Shown piece after piece: positions 10,202 through 19,617 of a stretch of 20,000 nucleotides of DNA. The stretch lies in the IMG/VR virus record IMGVR_UViG_3300034102_001074. One strand, 5' to 3'. Numbering within the stretch: position 1 is the stretch's first letter; every line of letters starts with the position of its first letter. Both the position numbers and the translations under genes were made by a program. This stretch comes from an uncultured virus (IMG/VR IMGVR_UViG_3300034102_001074) (lineage: Duplodnaviria; Heunggongvirae; Uroviricota; Caudoviricetes). Under the pieces are notes generated by a model. It saw only the letters and a list, made by a program, of their open reading frames with translations, was not told the origin of the DNA and made no database searches.

Positions 10202-10231
10202 TTGACACAAGATAAAAAGAGTTGCTATAAT
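10202..10231 (+). promoter_or_regulatory. Canonical housekeeping sigma promoter
   Basis: TTGACA-N18-TATAAT with extended TG, upstream of the 10258 ORF. Confidence 0.8.
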
Positions 10232-11123: not shown

Positions 11124-11139
11124 TGTGATGTAGGTCACA
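11124..11139. promoter_or_regulatory. CRP/GlxR-family binding site
   Basis: TGTGA-tgtagg-TCACA, a perfect core in intergenic DNA. Confidence 0.55.
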
Positions 11140-11637: not shown

Positions 11638-11748
11638 TTAGTCCTCACACATAATGCAGATAGAGGATTCAATTTCAAACGGTGCTAACTTGTCACCGCA
11701 CACTAGGCAGGTTGCCTTAGTGATTTGTTCTAATGCTAATTCATTCAT
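11638..11748 (-). CDS. Zn-finger micro-protein (36 aa)
   Basis: MNELALEQITKATCLVCGDKLAPFEIESSICIMCED; GAAAGG RBS; directly behind the promoter at 11781. Confidence 0.65.
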   Translation of the reverse strand: MNELALEQITKATCLVCGDKLAPFEIESSICIMCED

Positions 11749-11780: not shown

Positions 11781-11802
11781 AACTTACCATAGGGGTCTGA
11801 CA
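11781..11802 (-). promoter_or_regulatory. PafBC-type promoter
   Basis: TGTCAG-acccctatgg-TAAGTT. Confidence 0.75.
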
Positions 11803-11818
11803 ATTTTTGGGTGGGTGC

Positions 11819-11905
11819 TTATTGGTTGATGATGAACCAACCAACAAACACGCTGTACAATGCAACTATTGCTAGTCCGATTGCATCTAATGTTGTAATT
11901 TCCAT
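11819..11905 (-). CDS. Membrane micropeptide (28 aa)
   Basis: MEITTLDAIGLAIVALYSVFVGWFIINQ; strong AGGAGG RBS. Confidence 0.65.
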   Translation of the reverse strand: MEITTLDAIGLAIVALYSVFVGWFIINQ

Positions 11906-11933
11906 TTCTTACCTCCTCTTATCTAATAGTCTA

Positions 11934-11955
11934 AACCTAACACACCCCACCGACA
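11934..11955 (-). promoter_or_regulatory. PafBC-type promoter (full RecA-NDp consensus)
   Basis: TGTCGG-tggggtgtgt-TAGGTT, preceded by T, i.e. tTGTCGGTG-N8-TAnnnT. Confidence 0.75.
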
Positions 11956-12001
11956 ATTTCTGCCAAATAGGGCGTGTTGTAGGTAAACATTTGGTGAACA
12001 A

Positions 12002-12221
12002 TAATCCACAGCCTTATCCACACGTTATCCACAATCCACAGGTTATCCACAGGTACTTATCCACAAGTTATCCCCAAGCTGTGGATAAAAAAATCCGCCG
12101 ACCCGTTTTCCACAGGTTATCCACAGGCTTACGATTATGATTAAAAACACAGTGAAAATTCACAGGATATCCACAGGTTATACACATGTTATCCACAGAG
12201 TTATACACAGGCTGTTGATAA
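12002..12221. repeat. DnaA-box array (putative origin or DnaA titration locus)
   Basis: TTATCCACA at 12014, 12025, 12043, 12057, 12080 (rev), 12117, 12189. TTWTNCACA at 12106, 12178, 12201. One-mismatch boxes at 12002, 12068, 12167, 12213 (rev). Confidence 0.9.
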
Positions 12222-12279
12222 GTTGTGAATTATTGTTTACCTAATGTTCATCTAAGACATACCCTAAAATGGGCAAAAC

Positions 12280-12301
12280 TGTCAGACCCCCCTGCTAAGA
12301 T
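12280..12301 (+). promoter_or_regulatory. PafBC-type promoter
   Basis: TGTCAG-acccccctgc-TAAGAT. Confidence 0.75.
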
Positions 12302-12315
12302 GAAATCATAAAGCA

Positions 12316-12374
12316 GTTGAGAATGAGCCTAGCAAATAATCCCGAAAGGGTGAGCCTAGCAAATAAGTTTCAAC
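12316..12374 (+). ncRNA. Candidate structured 5' leader RNA with duplicated 16-mer
   Basis: TGAGCCTAGCAAATAA x2 around CCC-GAAA-GGG, closed by GTTGAGA/TTTCAAC. Confidence 0.5.
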
Positions 12375-12396
12375 ACTAAAGAAAGGTAGTCTCAAA

Positions 12397-12555
12397 ATGG
12401 CTTACACTAAAATCAAGAATCTATCCCTACTACTAGATGCTATGGCACAACTAGAAGATGCTAAGGCTACCGCCCTGCAATTCCCTGCACACCAACTAAT
12501 GGTGGACTATTGGGAAATCAAAATTAAAGAATTGACTAAGCGTGTCTACGGGTAA
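12397..12555 (+). CDS. Hypothetical protein (52 aa)
   Basis: MAYTKIKNLSLLLDAM...KRVYG; GAAAGG RBS. Confidence 0.65.
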   Translation: MAYTKIKNLSLLLDAMAQLEDAKATALQFPAHQLMVDYWEIKIKELTKRVYG

Positions 12556-12558
12556 AAC

Positions 12559-12580
12559 TGTCAGACCCTTATGCTAAAGT
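12559..12580 (+). promoter_or_regulatory. PafBC-type promoter
   Basis: TGTCAG-acccttatgc-TAAAGT. Confidence 0.75.
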
Positions 12581-12612
12581 AAAACTACTAAACAAAAAAG
12601 AAAGAGGTCACT

Positions 12613-12822
12613 ATGACTTACTTAGATGTAATTGAAAACGTAACTACTCCCGCAGGAAATAGTTTCACCCATACCATTCGCTACTATGACGAATGTGAGA
12701 TTTGCCAAAATGCATTGGCAAAGAATGAGATGCCTTTCATCTCTCACGATAACTGCCTTTACAAGGGTAAGCGTAGTATCGGTCATTCACTTGCACATTG
12801 TACCGCAGGGAGTTGCTACTAA
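12613..12822 (+). CDS. Cys/His-rich hypothetical protein (69 aa)
   Basis: CEIC, HDNC, HSLAHCTAGSCY; GAGG RBS. Confidence 0.7.
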   Translation: MTYLDVIENVTTPAGNSFTHTIRYYDECEICQNALAKNEMPFISHDNCLYKGKRSIGHSLAHCTAGSCY

Positions 12823-12953
12823 TGAATAGATGCGAAAACTGTGATGAGTGGTCAGAGTGGAAATCCTGCCCTGCCTGTGATGAATCTATCTGTGGCTATT
12901 GTGTCTACTATGTAGAGCAAGACCTAACCAGTTGCGACAGATTAGGTCACTAA
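12822..12953 (+). CDS. Cys-rich Zn-finger micro-protein (43 aa)
   Basis: MNRCENC...CPAC...CGYC; TAATG stop/start overlap. Confidence 0.6.
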   Translation: MNRCENCDEWSEWKSCPACDESICGYCVYYVEQDLTSCDRLGH

Positions 12954-12957
12954 AAAC

Positions 12958-12979
12958 TGTCAGACCTCTCTGATAGTAT
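12958..12979 (+). promoter_or_regulatory. PafBC-type promoter
   Basis: TGTCAG-acctctctga-TAGTAT. Confidence 0.75.
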
Positions 12980-13016
12980 CAACTTAACAAACTAACAAAA
13001 ACGAAAGGTGGTCACA

Positions 13017-13241
13017 ATGACTACACTAAACACCAAAGACTTTCTAGAGTCTTACAAGGCTTTGCAAAATGCAAAGTATCCAACACTTCCAACAAATGAG
13101 CATCTTGTGCTTTCAACTATTCTAAGTGTATCTATTGAATGGGCAAAGCCACTTGCAGATGTGCAAGCAATACTAGACAAAAAAACTCAAGAGCAAAATC
13201 TTGAACTACAATTCTTTCAAAATGCAAAGGCAGGAAAATAA
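13017..13241 (+). CDS. Hypothetical protein (74 aa)
   Basis: GAAAGG RBS favours ATG 13017 over GTG 13008. Confidence 0.7.
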   Translation: MTTLNTKDFLESYKALQNAKYPTLPTNEHLVLSTILSVSIEWAKPLADVQAILDKKTQEQNLELQFFQNAKAGK

Positions 13242-13424
13242 ATGATGACACGCAAAGACTACATAGCAACTGCAAAGATTTTTAATTCTTATGCAGAAGC
13301 AGGACAAGACAACATTTTGATTTCTTCACTTGTAAAAAGTATCGCAGAAGATTTTGCAGATTTATTTGCAAGCGATAATCCAAACTTTGATGAAGAAAAG
13401 TTTTTAGATGCGGTAGGTGTGTAA
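13242..13424 (+). CDS. Conserved hypothetical phage protein (60 aa)
   Basis: MTRKDYIATA...FASDNPNFDEEKFLDA pattern common in small phage proteins. Confidence 0.75.
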   Translation: MMTRKDYIATAKIFNSYAEAGQDNILISSLVKSIAEDFADLFASDNPNFDEEKFLDAVGV

Positions 13425-13576
13425 TGAGATTCGTTCACAATAAAATTGACGGAACTTTCGTAATTGGAATTAGTTTTTCAAATTACTACAGTAAAAAACT
13501 AAACAGAAAAAACACATCTTTAATTTTTGATTTAGGTTCGCATTCGTTTGCGTTTGTGTTGCGTGGTGAATACTAA
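13424..13576 (+). CDS. Hypothetical protein (50 aa)
   Basis: TAATG overlaps at both ends. Confidence 0.55.
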   Translation: MRFVHNKIDGTFVIGISFSNYYSKKLNRKNTSLIFDLGSHSFAFVLRGEY

Positions 13577-13644
13577 TGAAAAATTTTTTGATCATCACTT
13601 TTCTTTTGCTAACTCTGTATGTGGTTTTCAAACTCACTGATTAA
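13576..13644 (+). CDS. Membrane micropeptide (22 aa)
   Basis: MKNFLIITFLLLTLYVVFKLTD, coupled start. Confidence 0.4.
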   Translation: MKNFLIITFLLLTLYVVFKLTD

Positions 13645-13660
13645 AAACTAAACTAAAATT

Positions 13661-13695
13661 TCTGGGCGTGTCGTTTGACATTCCCAGATTTTTTT
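13661..13695 (+). terminator. Intrinsic terminator
   Basis: TCTGGG..TGTC/GACA..CCCAGA hairpin followed by T7. Confidence 0.6.
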
Positions 13696-13774
13696 GCCGA
13701 CCCGATTTTTCAGCTTTTGTCAAGTTACGACACGATTAAAACAACACCAGAAAATCACTGGAATTTAATAAAAT

Positions 13775-13796
13775 TGTCAGACCCTTATGCTAGTAT
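13775..13796 (+). promoter_or_regulatory. PafBC-type promoter with upstream module
   Basis: TGTCAG-acccttatgc-TAGTAT. Confidence 0.75.
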
Positions 13797-13826
13797 CAGA
13801 GATACCTACTAAGAAATGAGAACGAC

Positions 13827-14360
13827 ATGAACGCAACCGACTTATACCGTAACATTGCTACTACCGCAACACCTGCACAAATTGAACAGGCAACCCAATG
13901 GTATGCAGATGCAGAATTGTTGGCTCATGATCTAATTAGAATTTACCAATCACGAAACATAAACGTGACAGTAGAAAATACTGCAAGCATAATTTCTGCA
14001 TTCTCACCTCGTCAGCGTTGGTCACGCAACATGGCACAAGCATTAGAATTTGCTCATGGTGGAAAACCTGCAGGACTAAAAAATAATTTGCTAATGGCAG
14101 AAAATTCTTTAACAATGGGATTCGATGCACTTAAAGGTCAAAAAACTAATGCATTCGCAAGAGCAATTGCAGGTGATGAGAATGCAATAACAATTGATGT
14201 GTGGATGTGTTATGCAGCAGGATTAGAAACTAATGCACCTAACAAAACACAATACCGAGAATTATCTAAGGCTGTTGAAATAGTTGCAAGCGAAATGAAA
14301 ATGACACCTAGAGTTATGCAAGCCCTGATCTGGATTGTGTTTAGGGGTAGTGCCTCATAG
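13827..14360 (+). CDS. Phage protein with HhH-GPD DNA-glycosylase-like motifs (177 aa)
   Basis: WY, SP..W..N, GQKTNAF, AITIDVW and P..MQALIW motifs. Fold assignment is inference. Confidence 0.5.
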   Translation: MNATDLYRNIATTATPAQIEQATQWYADAELLAHDLIRIYQSRNINVTVENTASIISAFSPRQRWSRNMAQALEFAHGGKPAGLKNNLLMAENSLTMGFDALKGQKTNAFARAIAGDENAITIDVWMCYAAGLETNAPNKTQYRELSKAVEIVASEMKMTPRVMQALIWIVFRGSAS

Positions 14361-14471
14361 TGGCACACCGCTTGACAAAGCTAATAAAATCTGGTCGGCA
14401 CGAATTCCCATCAAAGTCAAGTTACGACACTATTAAAAAAACCACGAGAATTTCACTGAAAACCTAGAAAT

Positions 14472-14493
14472 TGTCAGACCCTTGTGGTAAGGT
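14472..14493 (+). promoter_or_regulatory. PafBC-type promoter with upstream module
   Basis: TGTCAG-acccttgtgg-TAAGGT. Confidence 0.75.
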
Positions 14494-14523
14494 ATAACCA
14501 TACCTACAAACGAAAGGGACACT

Positions 14524-14760
14524 ATGTTCACTTTACACAACCCAATGAAAGTGATGAACGAACGCTACGTTGTTACATCACACCCTTGCCCAACTTGCAA
14601 TGAAACCAAAACCGTTTCAATTTCTTCCGCTGAACTATTTGCATACCACCAAGGTGGATTAGCCCAAACTGTATTGTCTTCTTATGATGCAGATGTGCGT
14701 GAGCGTTTCATTACAGGTATCTGTGGTACTTGTTGGGATGAAATGTTTGGGGAGGAATAA
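14524..14760 (+). CDS. Zn-binding hypothetical protein (78 aa)
   Basis: CPTC and ERFITGICGTCWDEMF; GAAAGGG RBS. Confidence 0.75.
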   Translation: MFTLHNPMKVMNERYVVTSHPCPTCNETKTVSISSAELFAYHQGGLAQTVLSSYDADVRERFITGICGTCWDEMFGEE

Positions 14761-14782
14761 TGTCAGACCTATCTGCTAAGAT
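14761..14782 (+). promoter_or_regulatory. PafBC-type promoter
   Basis: TGTCAG-acctatctgc-TAAGAT. Confidence 0.75.
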
Positions 14783-14789
14783 TAATCCT

Positions 14790-14924
14790 ATGATGAAATT
14801 ACCTGCAAGCCCTGAGCAACTTAGGGCAAGACTAGAATTGCGTAGGAGTAATGCATCCGCTAAGCACCGTAACAAAAAGAAATACACCCGTAAGTCAAAA
14901 TACAAAAACCTACTAGGAGAATAA
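14790..14924 (+). CDS. Highly basic micro-protein (44 aa), probably leaderless
   Basis: MMKLPASPEQLRARLELRRSNASAKHRNKKKYTRKSKYKNLLGE; ATG 7 nt after the -10. Confidence 0.6.
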   Translation: MMKLPASPEQLRARLELRRSNASAKHRNKKKYTRKSKYKNLLGE

Positions 14925-14925
14925 A

Positions 14926-15210
14926 ATGGGATTAAACTTTGCTACAGAGTTATCCGCTATGGATACTATGCCAATTGAGCAACAGATCAATTTGCACCTA
15001 CAATACAATTTCTATCCACCCGTTCCATCGTCAATGGTACAGCCTTGCATAGATGCTATTAATGCAATTCAGAACGAAGATTACTTTGCTGAAATTGAAT
15101 TACCACAAGGTATTGAGTATCGTGGTAGTAATTTTGCACCTGCTCAAGCAATTGCAGATAACCATCGTTTAGATGCTTGGCTAATAGAATTAGATTGGGA
15201 TGACGAGTAA
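14926..15210 (+). CDS. Hypothetical protein (94 aa)
   Basis: AGGAG RBS; HLQYNFYPPVP motif. Confidence 0.75.
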   Translation: MGLNFATELSAMDTMPIEQQINLHLQYNFYPPVPSSMVQPCIDAINAIQNEDYFAEIELPQGIEYRGSNFAPAQAIADNHRLDAWLIELDWDDE

Positions 15211-15303
15211 AACTTGACAGACCCACCGAAAGGTGGTCGGCACAGTTAAAGCTATTTGTCAAGTTAAGAAACTTAAGAAAAAATCACGGAAAGCACTAGA
15301 AAT

Positions 15304-15325
15304 TGTCAGACCTTTGTGGTATGCT
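15304..15325 (+). promoter_or_regulatory. PafBC-type promoter with upstream module
   Basis: TGTCAG-acctttgtgg-TATGCT. Confidence 0.75.
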
Positions 15326-15351
15326 TTCAGCATAACCTACTAAGGAGAGAA

Positions 15352-15468
15352 GTGTCAGAACTAATTAAAGATTTGTTTGAGGGTGTCATTGATGATGAAG
15401 CCATCGCAAAATTATCAACAGAAGAACTAGAAGCAATTAACAAAATGCTAACGGAAGCAGGTTACTAA
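15352..15468 (+). CDS. Acidic micro-protein (38 aa)
   Basis: GTG start after AAGGAG; MSELIKDLFEG...EAGY. Confidence 0.6.
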   Translation: MSELIKDLFEGVIDDEAIAKLSTEELEAINKMLTEAGY

Positions 15469-15469
15469 A

Positions 15470-15808
15470 ATGGGTGCAAGAATTAATTTCGTATTTGATG
15501 ACGGAACAGACAGTCTAGTTAATCTTTATTCACATTGGGGTGAATCTAATTGGCAAGATGATTTGGTTGGTGCATTGATACACGCACAACCACGCAAGGG
15601 TGATACCTCATACTTTACTCGTATGGTTATCTCACACTTAATGAAAGACTATGTATTAGATGAAACTGGTTTTGGTATCTATGCAATTAGCCGTTCAGAA
15701 ATTGCTAACAATTTTGATAAGACAGTTGTATTAGATTTAGTAAACAATCTACTTACTGATTTAGATAATGGTAATTCAGTTGAGTTGTATGGAAAGGTAT
15801 TTGCGTAA
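15470..15808 (+). CDS. Conserved hypothetical phage protein (112 aa)
   Basis: MGARINF...LYSHWG...DTSYFTRM. Confidence 0.75.
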   Translation: MGARINFVFDDGTDSLVNLYSHWGESNWQDDLVGALIHAQPRKGDTSYFTRMVISHLMKDYVLDETGFGIYAISRSEIANNFDKTVVLDLVNNLLTDLDNGNSVELYGKVFA

Positions 15809-15990
15809 TGAGTAATAGTAAAAGGTATTTAGAAGATTTACAAGATAAAAATATGACAGCACAAGAAATTCTTAATCGTTGGTATCCAAATGGAAACTAC
15901 ACCGAATCAGATGTATGGGATGCCATTGCAGAAGCAAATGGTATGGACTATTCAGAAATTGCAGATGGAGATTTAGCAGAATGGCTATAA
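15808..15990 (+). CDS. Acidic hypothetical protein (60 aa)
   Basis: TAATG coupling with the upstream gene. Confidence 0.7.
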   Translation: MSNSKRYLEDLQDKNMTAQEILNRWYPNGNYTESDVWDAIAEANGMDYSEIADGDLAEWL

Positions 15991-16109
15991 GACTATTTAA
16001 TCGTAAGCAAGAAATGTCAGACCCTTATGTTATACTAGACAAACTAATGTCAGAAATGGCATCAGATAAGATTTACATTGAGTATCTACGATTGAGAGAA
16101 AGTGTATAG
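15981..16109 (+). CDS. Possible micro-protein (42 aa) spanning a promoter
   Basis: ATG 15981 after GGAG; start uncertain. Confidence 0.4.
   Translation: MAIRLFNRKQEMSDPYVILDKLMSEMASDKIYIEYLRLRESV
16015..16036 (+). promoter_or_regulatory. PafBC-type promoter
   Basis: TGTCAG-acccttatgt-TATACT. Confidence 0.72.
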
Positions 16110-16265
16110 TTGAAATTATTTTTTGGTATACTTGCTATGTTATTTGCTTTTGGTTTCGTGATAGGTTTAATTTCTAAACTTAGTTGGCTTGAAGATAAAA
16201 TAGATAGTGACATAAACGAAGCATCAGAACTTGACAAATACAAAACCTATGATTGGAAACTATGA
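16110..16265 (+). CDS. Single-TM small protein (51 aa)
   Basis: TTG start, MKLFFGILAMLFAFGFVIGLI...; ATGA overlap with the next gene. Confidence 0.55.
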   Translation: MKLFFGILAMLFAFGFVIGLISKLSWLEDKIDSDINEASELDKYKTYDWKL

Positions 16266-16477
16266 TTACCGAATATAAAGAAATAGATAAATTAGTTGGA
16301 ATGACTATTGAGCCTGGCGACATAGTAAAGCTTCCAGACAATCATATTGTTTGCATTACTCGCACAGAGCCAACTCCTGAAGGATATGATTTATTCTTCT
16401 TAGATATCTTTGAAGATGAAGAGTTATGCTATTCCCTACTAGATAATGAAAGTGTGTCTTTGCTTCAGTTTGACTGA
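16262..16477 (+). CDS. Hypothetical protein (71 aa)
   Basis: ATGA overlap supports ATG 16262. Confidence 0.65.
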   Translation: MITEYKEIDKLVGMTIEPGDIVKLPDNHIVCITRTEPTPEGYDLFFLDIFEDEELCYSLLDNESVSLLQFD

Positions 16478-16568
16478 GGCAAGACCGCCGACACAAAAGT
16501 ATTGGTTTGTCAACCTTTACGAGAGTGATTAAGGTCACATGGAAAAGATCACCAGAATCCTGCAAAAA

Positions 16569-16590
16569 TGTCAGACCCCTCTGGTATGAT
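16569..16590 (+). promoter_or_regulatory. PafBC-type promoter with upstream module
   Basis: TGTCAG-acccctctgg-TATGAT. Confidence 0.75.
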
Positions 16591-16624
16591 GATAACATCA
16601 ACAACAAATAGAAAAGAGAAGCAA

Positions 16625-16783
16625 ATGGAAAACACAATCCAAGCCCCAACTGTTGGCTCACAGTTCACCACGCAGAAGTCTGCTGTAACTGGAACCGTAA
16701 CAGAAGTTAAGGAAAACAAGAATGGTACTTTGCGTATCAAACTTGATGTGAACGGTCAAGACCGTTGGACTACTGTTAAGTAG
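16625..16783 (+). CDS. Small beta-rich protein (52 aa)
   Basis: True start is likely 16625; the track's 16568 ATG is part of the promoter motif. Confidence 0.7.
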   Translation: MENTIQAPTVGSQFTTQKSAVTGTVTEVKENKNGTLRIKLDVNGQDRWTTVK

Positions 16784-16793
16784 TTAATTGACT

Positions 16794-16827
16794 TGGGTGG
16801 GGTGTTTTTACCCTTGCACCCCACCCA
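16794..16827 (+). terminator. GC-rich stem-loop (terminator or processing site)
   Basis: TGGGTGGGGTG/CACCCCACCCA 11-bp stem; no U-tract. Confidence 0.5.
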
Positions 16828-16834
16828 CACAAAT

Positions 16835-16856
16835 TGTCAGACCTATCTGATAAGAT
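16835..16856 (+). promoter_or_regulatory. PafBC-type promoter
   Basis: TGTCAG-acctatctga-TAAGAT. Confidence 0.75.
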
Positions 16857-16886
16857 AAACTTACCTACTAAAGAATGGAGTCCACA

Positions 16887-17372
16887 ATGGGACTAGATAT
16901 GTATCTTCGTGCAAGTGAATACATTTCACGCACCGATTGGGGTCGTGATGAGAATGGTGACATTCTTGACACACCTAATGAAACATTTAAGAAAATTGTT
17001 GAAGCATTTGAAATGGAAGATGTTATTGACAAGCAAGGCTTTGCTGGCATCTCTATTGATTTCCCAATGGGTTACTGGCGTAAGGCTAATCAGATTCATC
17101 AATGGTTTGTTGATAATGTTCAAGACGGTGAAGATAACTGTGGTTCATACTATGTAACCCGTCAACAGTTAGAAGAATTAAAAGCAACCTGCATTGAAGT
17201 TCTTGCACATAAAGAATTGGCAGAAGATTTATTGCCAACAGGTGCAGGATTCTTTTTTGGTTCAACTACTTATGATGAATACTACTATGCTGGTTTGAAT
17301 GAAACCATTGAGATTATTAATCGTTGTCTTGAAAGTAGATTTGATGGCTTTGAATACCAATCATCTTGGTAG
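16887..17372 (+). CDS. Conserved hypothetical phage protein (161 aa)
   Basis: MGLDMYL, YWRKANQIHQWFV, LLPT..GFFFGS..YDEYY, YQSSW; GGAG RBS. Confidence 0.8.
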   Translation: MGLDMYLRASEYISRTDWGRDENGDILDTPNETFKKIVEAFEMEDVIDKQGFAGISIDFPMGYWRKANQIHQWFVDNVQDGEDNCGSYYVTRQQLEELKATCIEVLAHKELAEDLLPTGAGFFFGSTTYDEYYYAGLNETIEIINRCLESRFDGFEYQSSW

Positions 17373-17428
17373 TAGGTTACATCCGAAACCAAAACCTGCC
17401 ACAGCCACGCAGGTAAAATAAAGGGGAC

Positions 17429-17464
17429 AGTCCTAAGCACCATACTCAGACTATAAACTGCTTA
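17429..17464 (+). ncRNA. Candidate H-type pseudoknot RNA, copy B (5' of tRNA)
   Basis: AGTC-C-TAAGCA-CCATACTCA-GACT-ATAAAC-TGCTTA. Confidence 0.55.
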
Positions 17465-17470
17465 CCATAA

Positions 17471-17544
17471 GGTCTGTTAGCTCAATTGGTTAGAGCACTA
17501 CCCTGTCACGGTAGAGGTTGTGGGTTCAAGTCCCATACAGATCG
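17471..17544 (+). tRNA. tRNA-Asp (GTC)
   Basis: Cloverleaf: acceptor GGTCTGT/ACAGATC, D arm GCTC/GAGC, anticodon arm CTACC/GGTAG with GTC at 17505-17507, T loop TTCAAGT, discriminator G. CCA not encoded. Confidence 0.95.
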
Positions 17545-17635
17545 CAAAATCGGGTCGGCAGCTTTATAACAGCAATATAACAATTACGAAATGCTTACGA
17601 ATTCACAGGAAATTACACTAAATAAGTTTGGTAAA

Positions 17636-17657
17636 TGTCAGACCCCTATGCTATGAT
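17636..17657 (+). promoter_or_regulatory. PafBC-type promoter with upstream module
   Basis: TGTCAG-acccctatgc-TATGAT. Confidence 0.75.
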
Positions 17658-17688
17658 AATCTTATCAAACACTAACAAAGGAAAAAAC

Positions 17689-18684
17689 GTGTCTATTGAC
17701 CAAATTGAAATTGTAAACGGCAAGGCTTCTTATGCTTCCTTGCGTGTACCTGCCTACCACCAACTTGGAACTGTATTCCAAAATGAAGTGACCACATCAG
17801 AAATGCTAGAACTAGCAAACCTTGATAACTGGGATGTACGTCTTGAAGATGTTGCACTACCTGAAAACTACACATCAGTAAAGTCTAACTTTCTTGTTGT
17901 TCGTAATCATCCAGCAGACAAGCATCCAGATGTTTTATCTGTTGTAGGTGAGCGTTACAAGGTATTGCAGAATGAAGAACTATTTGCATTTGGTGATAAC
18001 TTGCTTGACGGTGGACGTTGGGAAGTTGCTGGTTCTCTAAAGCAAGGTAGACTTGTCTTTGGTGCATTAGCACTTGAGCGTGAAACCATACTTGACCCAA
18101 CAGGTGTTGCAGACGTAGTTAAGAATTACCTTGCTATCTCTACAAGCCACGATGGTTCTAGTGCTGTTCAAGCAACTGTTACTCCAATCCGTATGACCTG
18201 TATGAATACTCACACCGCAGTATTCCGCAAGGGTGCTAAGCAGTCTTTCAAGTTACGTCACACACAGTCATTAGACGGACGTGTTGCACAGGCTCGTCAA
18301 GCACTTGGTCTTGCTAACACTTACATTGATGAGTTTGAAGTTATGGCTAAGGCTATGATTGAAAAGGAAATCACTAAGTCTAAGTTTGCTGAAATTGTTG
18401 CAACCGCTTACCCAATGCCAGACAAGGACACTAGAGGTGCTATGACTAAGTGGGAAAACAAGATTGAATTGCTAGATGAAATCTATGGTGGTGACACTAA
18501 CGGAATGATTGCTGGTAATGCTTGGGGTGCTTACAATGCACTAACAGAACGCTTAGACTGGTATCGCTCTGCCCGTAGTGAAAACAAGGAAAGTATCCTA
18601 ATGGGTGCTAGTGGCTTTGACCCTGTTGTAAATGCAGAAAAGAATAAGTTGCTATCCATTGTGCGTGAGTTGGCTGAGGTCTAA
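17689..18684 (+). CDS. DUF932-family phage/plasmid protein
   Basis: YHQLG, LDNWDV, VVGERYKVLQNEELF, AGSLKQGRLVF, SHDGS, TPIRMTCMNT, RHT, AWGAYNALTE..D. GTG start after AAGGA. Confidence 0.8.
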   Translation: MSIDQIEIVNGKASYASLRVPAYHQLGTVFQNEVTTSEMLELANLDNWDVRLEDVALPENYTSVKSNFLVVRNHPADKHPDVLSVVGERYKVLQNEELFAFGDNLLDGGRWEVAGSLKQGRLVFGALALERETILDPTGVADVVKNYLAISTSHDGSSAVQATVTPIRMTCMNTHTAVFRKGAKQSFKLRHTQSLDGRVAQARQALGLANTYIDEFEVMAKAMIEKEITKSKFAEIVATAYPMPDKDTRGAMTKWENKIELLDEIYGGDTNGMIAGNAWGAYNALTERLDWYRSARSENKESILMGASGFDPVVNAEKNKLLSIVRELAEV

Positions 18685-18695
18685 CTCCAACACAC

Positions 18696-18730
18696 CCAGT
18701 TTCCTGACTTGACAAAGTTGGGAAATTGGG
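18696..18730 (+). terminator. Long stem-loop after DUF932 gene
   Basis: CCCAGTTTCCTGACTT-gaca-AAGTTGGGAAATTGGG pairs fully with G-U wobbles. Confidence 0.55.
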
Positions 18731-18797
18731 TCGGCACGTTAAGATCCAAAGCTCTTGTTACGACACTTAAGAAATACTCACGGGAATCACCAGAAAA

Positions 18798-18819
18798 TGT
18801 CAGACCTATCTGCTATGAT
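18798..18819 (+). promoter_or_regulatory. PafBC-type promoter with upstream module
   Basis: TGTCAG-acctatctgc-TATGAT. Confidence 0.75.
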
Positions 18820-18849
18820 GTAATCATAACCTACTAGAAAGAAGAACAA

Positions 18850-19617
18850 ATGCCAAACTGGGTATTTAATTCACTTGTTGTATCAGGTGAGCAATCAGAA
18901 TTAGATAAGATGGTTGAACAACTTAACCAGCCATTCACTATGCACCACCCTGTTCATAAGTTTGTTGATGGTAAGTACACAAAGGTTGCTGACTTTGAAG
19001 AATACAACAATCCTGTATTTGCTTTTTGGAACATTGTAAAACCAACAGACCTTGAATCATACTATGAAAAAGAAGTCTTTACTAAGAAGCAACTTGATGG
19101 TGAAGAATTTATGGCAGAGTTTGTTCGCTCTATGCGTGAAGACCAAGACTGGTATCATTGGAACTGCCGTAACTGGGGAACTAAATGGGACGTATGTGTA
19201 TCTGATGACAATGAGTATCCTAATACTATTAAAACTGTTAATGATGATGGTTCTGTTATGTATCACTTTGAAACCGCTTGGAGTCCTGTTGGAGAGGCTC
19301 TACTAAAACTATCAGAACAATACCCAACTCTTGAGTTTGACTATGAGTATGAGGAGGAGACTGGTTGGGGTGGTTCTTGCACATTCAAGGCTGGAGAAGA
19401 CATTGCCTGTGATGAGTATGATTTCCCAATGTCCCACGCTGACTACAAAGATAGAGATAAGGAATGCATCTGTGAGTATGGAGACCCAGAGAACGGCTAT
19501 GAAGATTGCCCTGTAGATACTACAAAATACAGGTGGGATAACGAACTGGAGGAATGGCAAGAAATGTCAGACCTCTCTGATACACTAGTATCAACAAACA
19601 ACCTACAAGGAGAATAA
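18850..19617 (+). CDS. DUF1281/YubB-like protein (255 aa)
   Basis: MPNW..N, DWYHWNCRNWGTKWD, FETAWSP, LSEQYPTLEF...YEEE. Confidence 0.75.
   Translation: MPNWVFNSLVVSGEQSELDKMVEQLNQPFTMHHPVHKFVDGKYTKVADFEEYNNPVFAFWNIVKPTDLESYYEKEVFTKKQLDGEEFMAEFVRSMREDQDWYHWNCRNWGTKWDVCVSDDNEYPNTIKTVNDDGSVMYHFETAWSPVGEALLKLSEQYPTLEFDYEYEEETGWGGSCTFKAGEDIACDEYDFPMSHADYKDRDKECICEYGDPENGYEDCPVDTTKYRWDNELEEWQEMSDLSDTLVSTNNLQGE
19565..19586 (+). promoter_or_regulatory. PafBC-type promoter inside 3' end of upstream CDS
   Basis: TGTCAG-acctctctga-TACACT. Confidence 0.72.

Follow-up and report, generated by a model that had tools for sequence, protein, structure and literature searches.

Predicted PafBC-type -26 promoters in the small-gene field of a freshwater actinophage clade

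Why would a phage place a long series of small genes behind promoters that resemble those of an actinobacterial DNA-damage response, and which protein reads them? The question is raised by a 20,000-nucleotide (nt) stretch of the uncultured virus record IMGVR_UViG_3300034102_001074 (IMG/VR; Caudoviricetes), hereafter the window, in which the element TGTCRG-N10-TANNNT recurs ahead of small genes. PafBC promoters of Actinomycetota are described as TGTC(G/A)G-N10-TA-N3-T, with a GTC triplet, a position of -28 to -23 and, mostly, no -35 element (PMC8635444, PMC11804915). The phage copies share this sequence, triplet and position, and our analysis suggests that host PafBC probably activates or boosts the early promoter class of the phage. 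The feature is real, occurs throughout the clade and agrees with the promoter of host PafBC in every available sequence test, and this reading is ranked first among those considered.

The -26 promoters of the window

All 15 copies of the element reported by the first-pass annotation are present at their coordinates and on their strands. Base composition does not account for them, as 200 shuffles yielded a mean of 0.40 copies and a maximum of 4 (0/200 reached 15). The spacer is invariant as claimed, spacers of 9 or 11 nt giving 0 copies in the window, and the sequence said to be shared by fourteen copies, TGTCAGACC, was recovered in 14/15. The copy at 11955, TGTCGGTGG, indeed matches the consensus of Mycobacterium smegmatis. 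In 15/15 window copies, a hexamer of the tGTCgg type with its GTC triplet stands 10 nt ahead of the -10, and the -10 itself has the canonical SigA form (TA-N3-T) of PafBC promoters. The absence of a consensus -35 was also borne out, with at most 4/6 matches to TTGACA at 16-19 nt in 15/15 window copies.

The whole contig of 40,318 bases holds 18 copies, all within one 11.4-kilobase (kb) small-gene field and, in agreement with the annotation, 0 among the structural genes. TG-N precedes the -10 in 18/18 of them, which confirms the extended -10 that had been described. The three extra copies lie just past the window (window-equivalent positions 20483, 22607 and 23178), and the one at 23178 carries a perfect TTGACA besides its -26 element. 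The statement that each copy faces a gene start holds for 13/15, with a start codon 7-37 nt past the -10 and open reading frames (ORFs) of 28-331 codons; the exceptions are 12280, with its 95-nt leader, and 16015, followed by a 20-codon frame only. We infer that the field comprises early genes. The promoters and the genes that they precede are as follows.

11781..11802, minus strand: -26 element with TG-extended -10; a 36-codon ORF (11638-11748) starts 32 nt downstream
11934..11955, minus strand: -26 promoter in the TGTCGGTGG form; 28-codon ORF 11819-11905
12280..12301, plus strand: first -26 promoter of the rightward field; 95-nt leader to the 52-codon ORF 12397-12555
12559..12580, plus strand: -26 promoter ahead of ORF 12613-12822
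12958..12979, plus strand: -26 promoter ahead of ORF 13017-13241
13775..13796, plus strand: -26 promoter ahead of the DUF7178 gene 13827-14360
14472..14493, plus strand: -26 promoter ahead of ORF 14524-14760
14761..14782, plus strand: -26 promoter of ORF 14790-14924 (phrog_855), with the ATG 7 nt past the -10
15304..15325, plus strand: -26 promoter ahead of ORF 15352-15468
16015..16036, plus strand: -26 promoter, downstream gene uncertain (20-codon frame)
16569..16590, plus strand: -26 promoter ahead of ORF 16625-16783
16835..16856, plus strand: -26 promoter ahead of ORF 16875/16887-17372
17636..17657, plus strand: -26 promoter driving the DUF932 gene; its orthologues in other loci have -26 only, -35 plus -26, or -35 only
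17689..18684, plus strand: DUF932 gene; Streptomyces BE phages carry its orthologue within their terminal repeat
18798..18819, plus strand: -26 promoter ahead of the Api92-like (DUF1281_C) gene 18850-19617
19565..19586, plus strand: -26 promoter within the 3' end of the upstream gene; next ORF from 19619

The start at the 14761 promoter is probably leaderless, given an ATG 7 nt past the -10 and no Shine-Dalgarno sequence.

Spread of the element among phages

The source contig (G000) is one part of a freshwater actinophage genome of ~100 kb, with the Streptomyces BE/BK phages as relatives. Its nearest cultured records by capsid and DUF932 proteins are these BE/BK phages and the Rhodococcus phages Weasels2 and Trina. 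Over both flanks, the source contig shares 82-95% identity with a sister contig (G091), the assembly of which stops at the field, a break as expected of a hypervariable region or a terminal repeat. WhiB, which is the usual marker of actinobacterial phages (PMC10202952, PMC10914622), was found by Pfam scans in G091 as well as in two relatives, G001 and G084. In G084, the closest near-complete relative, another WhiB gene lies inside the -26-driven field (L533:13712-13918). The DUF932 gene occurs in two copies in BE phages, located in the terminal repeat; these repeats measure ~11 kb (PMC5764925). DUF932 and DUF1281 are not mentioned in PMC5512222.

The scan of relatives proposed by the annotation gave 5-15 copies per genome in 11 relatives with the field on the contig. 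Using a strict form of the motif, at least 174 viral stretches were matched; among the 174 matches listed, 134 have homologues in the clade. Thirteen long loci without such homologues are single hits, mostly inside coding DNA of viruses outside it, and use of the motif by unrelated viruses was therefore rejected. Five near-complete genomes picked by the motif carry 11-15 copies vs 0-2 of its reversed form. A check free of motif bias was provided by loci picked by their DUF932 gene (n = 29 at ≥ 50% identity, some of them near-duplicates): at least two sites are present in 23/29, and 118 sites have a spacer of 10 nt vs 3 and 2 with spacers of 9 and 11 nt. Together with the shuffles, these counts rule out chance or a repeat artefact as the source of the copies. 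Whole records from the DUF932 set hold 5, 9, 10, 11 and 14 copies, and G088 holds 1; G088 is without capsid homology and belongs to another phage group, so it was discarded as an in-clade negative. Among five capsid-picked fragments, one has 12 copies and four have 1-2, the low-copy contig G091 covering both flanks and ending at the field. Across nine genomes, 99/107 sites fall in one cluster per genome. One lone conserved -26 promoter was seen outside the field (G091:C1:64752, G092:C1:58952, G093:C1:58033), before a probable leaderless gene that follows an M23 peptidase; in G091, this promoter has TTGACA in addition.

The element is not a general feature of actinophages. Weasels2, Trina, Comrade and Jay2Jay have 64, 63, 44 and 45 matches vs 102, 85, 52 and 81 for the reversed motif, and five other DUF932-bearing actinophages have 0-3 each. 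A blastn search with one promoter against cultured phages returned chance hits only. The early, terminal-repeat promoters of the BE/BK phages (Stanwilliamsviridae) resemble those of the window in their homologous DUF932 field, in their density (one for every one to three small genes) and in their TG-extended -10; they differ in a TTG-type -35 combined with TAGACT, with GTC at -26 in 5/19 listed BE promoters and no genome-wide excess. Some early promoters in the terminal repeats of Jay2Jay and NootNoot (L003, L480) combine TGTC or TGCC in the -26 position with a -35, and CCGGACA recurs in these repeats (23 and 17 copies). This state possibly represents weak PafBC-compatible promoters in culturable phages. 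For the clade studied here, the -26 element is usable as a sequence marker.

The reader of the element

The phage host would be a PafBC-bearing actinobacterium, most likely acI. Short motif-bearing phage fragments were assigned to bins as varied as an Actinomycetota genome (G007), an Acidimicrobiaceae genome and a Bacteroidetes genome, with others in unclassified bins, so that binning is weak host evidence. A motif scan of a bacterial collection gave 81 stretches, mostly chance matches, with a few binned phage fragments. The family of G007 is taken as acI because its genomes measure 1.1-2.2 Mb and an acI probe matches 14/61 exactly. The helix-turn-helix (HTH) domain of PafC was found in 61/61 genomes of this presumed host family, in line with the annotation's call for a pafBC search in the predicted host. 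The PafB of G007 can be aligned with the PafB of known structure and retains the helix with R46 and R50, the residues that read the GTC triplet (PMC8635444). Acidimicrobiia remain a possible host group, since one of their genomes (G077, of the family of G008) holds 26 strict -26 sites vs 0 reversed; WYL pairs were found in two Acidimicrobiia bins.

Genomes of the presumed host family carry the element as well. The form TGTCAGWSS-N7-TANNNT, derived from the phage alignment, has 156 matches in the 61 genomes vs 35 when reversed and 13 with a spacer one longer. In four single-contig host genomes, 44 of 52 loose matches were examined, eight apparent orthologues being left out. Genes downstream of these sites include dnaN, DEDD exonuclease, Dam-type methylase, MmeI and SNF2 genes and, each with an SOS box, a DnaE2-type polymerase gene and a LysM gene. 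At recA, an SOS box accompanies a proximal GTC-N12-TACCTT in 5/5 cases, resembling the two-promoter layout of mycobacterial recA (PMC11804915). The unselected neighbours of the search motif at 471 phage sites are most often TGTCAGTGG (54), TGTCAGTGC (23) and TGTCGGTGG (21), and the same forms dominate in the host family. Presumably, they also match the older RecA-independent consensus. An ATG peak 6-7 nt past the -10, a pattern as for leaderless starts, is shared by phage (33/402) and host (13/44) sites and would indicate where transcription begins. Phage copies differ from host PafBC promoters in being clustered on one gene class, in their near-universal TG-extended and stronger -10, in an upstream A-tract and in some -35 hybrids.

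The promoter of the DUF932 gene offers a natural series. It has the -26 element in 17/29 loci and TTGAC in 9/12 of the rest; as -26 alone, hybrid and TTGAC alone all occur, the -26 element appears to occupy the role otherwise served by the -35. The series illustrates, within a single promoter, how a phage can acquire sigma adaptation.

In the mechanism that we propose, the early promoters of the clade would be served by the host SigA RNA polymerase, with the host PafBC -26 element substituting for the -35 of soil relatives. The TG-extended, near-consensus -10 would allow some transcription at once. Single-stranded DNA (ssDNA) from the incoming linear phage DNA, from phage nucleases or from sunlight damage would render host PafBC active, and PafB on the GTC triplet together with PafC on sigma domain 4 would jointly raise output at 15-18 promoters. 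Phased CRP-type boxes, DnaA boxes and WhiA-like boxes would supply extra host inputs, such that the host damage alarm would become an amplifier of phage takeover genes. PafBC is read here as an amplifier and not as a lock, since phage -10 regions are extended and better matched.

The annotation had offered three options, namely use of the host PafBC response, a PafBC-like adaptor of the phage itself and titration of PafBC. The first is favoured, no such adaptor was found and pure titration fits poorly. If the adaptor were phage-encoded, it would have an unrecognised fold, be made first from the extended -10 or be virion-borne, and act in a middle mode like MotA/AsiA. We regard this as quite unlikely. 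WYL domains are absent from 5/5 near-complete relatives. Pfam scans of G001 (148/160 ORFs), G084 (142/150), G091 beyond 30 kb (78) and G000 (15) detected neither a WYL domain nor a sigma factor above a weak HTH hit, and a PafB-HTH profile built from five host segments gave a best E of 0.36 against 16,328 frames. Two conserved phage HTH proteins are shared with motif-less relatives, being present in 132 and 118 records of cultured phages, for the most part Streptomyces phages; the four cultured relatives tested are without the motif. The great uniformity of TGTCAGACC in this genome (14/15) would suit a dedicated phage factor, as would the conservation of small field genes of no known function, e.g., the 60-aa and 53-aa (amino acid) proteins present in 7/8 relatives; a family search for the 60-aa protein gave none. 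The agreement with the host element, which extends to sequence, variants and spacing, would then be coincidence or mimicry, however. Host PafBC appears to be the simplest reader of the element.

A rival that retains PafBC, and that we consider unlikely, holds that the extended -10 promoters are constitutive and that the -26 copies form a sink drawing PafBC (with DnaA and CRP) off the chromosome, thereby blunting the damage or anti-phage response. The strong extended -10 of the phage sites, the many copies per genome, multiplied during replication, the varying number and place of DnaA boxes among relatives, and the methylase and restriction-type genes downstream of host sites are all in keeping with a sink. 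A 2025 paper cited in PMC12848934 reportedly links pafBC to mycobacteriophage resistance, which would also suit a sink. A sink does not, however, need a fixed 10-nt spacing (118 sites vs 3 and 2 at 9 and 11), an exchange of -35 and -26 or phased upstream boxes, and PafBC binds promoters jointly with the polymerase (PMC8635444). Another host reader, for instance WhiA with phage WhiB, or sigma domain 4 (CTGACA on the opposite strand is close to a reversed -35), is very improbable. GACA is read by both WhiA and sigma domain 4, WhiA is encoded in 31/31 host-family genomes and WhiB in the relatives, but the G before TGTC that GACAC would require is found at only 5% of 471 sites, the distinct motif GACACGCC is already present in the field, and the host copies at recA, dnaE2 and dnaN have PafBC geometry.

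Several observations weigh against activation by host PafBC. The -10 is extended in 316/402 phage sites vs 4/44 and 15/156 host sites and matches the consensus at 4.8 vs 3.7 of 6 positions; with such an extended, stronger -10, PafBC is perhaps dispensable for the phage promoters, and we doubt, judging by these -10 regions, that they would be silent without it. TTGACA also occurs in 10/17 DUF932 promoters with -26 and at 13/99 clustered sites in nine genomes. A CRP-type box is found at only 1/15 window promoters (16569). Positions 7-9 are preferably ACC in the window vs TGG in hosts, and a loose pattern shows no excess in host-family genomes (547 vs 555 reversed). Host sites precede NlpC/P60, Lon-like, chaperonin and unknown genes as well, and 7/44 lie within long ORFs. 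The host link is built on WhiB, capsid kinship and short binned phage contigs, one bin being Bacteroidetes, and an unrecognisable phage factor is conceivable given the many small early ORFs without a known family. The published motif and spacing, WhiB, pafBC in the likely host family and the recA, dnaN and dnaE2 copies speak in favour of the annotation's identification as a PafBC -26 promoter; dependence on PafBC and the host itself are inferred. The annotation had not noted that the phage copies have a much stronger -10 than host PafBC promoters, or that DnaA, CRP-type and WhiA-like boxes lie in the same field.

Accompanying host-type boxes and biological meaning

Further elements in and around the field are listed below; the scans for DnaA-type and CRP-type boxes used sequences that we take to be their consensus.

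10202..10231, plus strand: ordinary -35/-10 promoter (12/12), a contrast case outside the field
11124..11139: perfect CRP-type palindrome TGTGA-N6-TCACA upstream of an Hsp20 gene
12002..12221: array of 14 DnaA-type boxes (7 perfect TTATCCACA, 7 with one mismatch) between divergent promoters
13665..13672, plus strand: WhiA-like box GGCGTGTC (GACACGCC on the opposite strand), 3 nt ahead of TTGACA
16524..16539: CRP-type box with one mismatch; relative to the start predicted for the 16569 promoter, its centre is at -65.5, in the same phase as in relatives

CRP-type palindromes lie upstream of 226/526 distinct promoters (278 boxes vs 17 in an equal downstream stretch), and their centres peak near -64.5, -74.5 and -84.5. 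Presumably, this is ~3 base pairs (bp) further upstream than the class I positions of Escherichia coli. Over nine genomes with 38 boxes, the phase strength is 0.65 at 10.5 bp, the genomes being related and the values non-independent. Helical phasing of this kind fits activators that touch the polymerase, as in class I CRP regulation. The phased palindromes were seen in the fields of G001-G004, G084, G086 and G087. Inside the field lie 36/41 CRP-type boxes and 32/35 copies of GACACGCC, and a CRP-type HTH is encoded in 30/31 host-family genomes. The word TCAC(G/T)G(A/G)A occurs ~20 nt ahead of four -26 sites (13755, 14453, 15284 and 18778) and is possibly half a CRP box or another element.

DnaA boxes are concentrated in or near the field (54/92 across nine genomes vs 13 expected by length; the field is richer in intergenic DNA). 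Relatives differ in how many they have and where, with a frequent location 76-83 bp upstream of a -26 promoter. When 121 viral loci were picked by paired DnaA boxes alone, a -26 promoter was present in 10, vs 1-2 with the spacer shifted, and in six of the 10 the distance is 76-83 bp. The host dnaA-dnaN gap likewise couples DnaA-type boxes with a -26 site (L293, L313). The array at 12002-12221 may be an origin, a DnaA sink or a regulatory input; GC skew followed the orientation of the genes and pointed to no origin. GACACGCC resembles the WhiA motif GACAC (PMC10243135), often stands 3-4 nt ahead of TTGAY and was seen in G001-G005, G084 and G087. Phage WhiB might act as partner of host WhiA at these boxes. 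A word similar to GGCGTGTC was observed ahead of the SOS box of host recA in 5/5 cases. Ordinary TTGACA promoters flank the field on both sides, and its distal end shifts from -26 through hybrid to -35 promoters.

The closest precedent appears to be the CtrA control of alphaproteobacterial phage genes ('lytic deferment', PMC9437464), in which host-regulator sites are likewise concentrated in promoter regions and form a clade-level signature. Here, in contrast, the regulator would be an ssDNA-sensing damage activator, its site takes the place of a core element of the promoter, boxes of the CRP, DnaA and WhiA types stand alongside, and binding is predicted. Sigma appropriation by MotA/AsiA of phage T4 is similar in that the role of the -35 is taken over by a box further upstream, near -30 (PMC8635444), but T4 encodes its own activators, and none were found here in the scans of relatives. 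Prophage induction via RecA/LexA also ties phage expression to host DNA damage (PMC12392091); it proceeds by repressor cleavage in temperate phages, whereas a putative activator site is involved here and neither integrase (PF00589, 0/5) nor ParA-type (PF13614, 0/5) genes were found in five relatives. Pfam scans of G001, G084 and G091 plus G000, which alone covered serine integrases, gave no integrase or partition match. Our search of chiefly open-access literature found no description of -26 promoters on a phage.

It is possible, if doubtful, that the field serves as a host-state gate, the injected phage waiting in slow-growing acI cells and proceeding to lysis only upon signals through its boxes, with PafBC reporting ssDNA or sunlight damage, CRP reporting carbon, DnaA the readiness to replicate and WhiA/WhiB division. 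The DnaA array would then possibly keep the waiting genome replicating, and the gate would amount to repressor-free, activator-driven damage induction in a phage in which no lysogeny genes were found. WYL-domain sensors have known roles in host damage repair and anti-phage control. If activation by host PafBC holds true, this phage lineage would turn a host alarm against the cell through promoter sequence alone. As these phages probably infect acI, which is among the most abundant freshwater bacteria, sunlight damage could time lysis in lakes.

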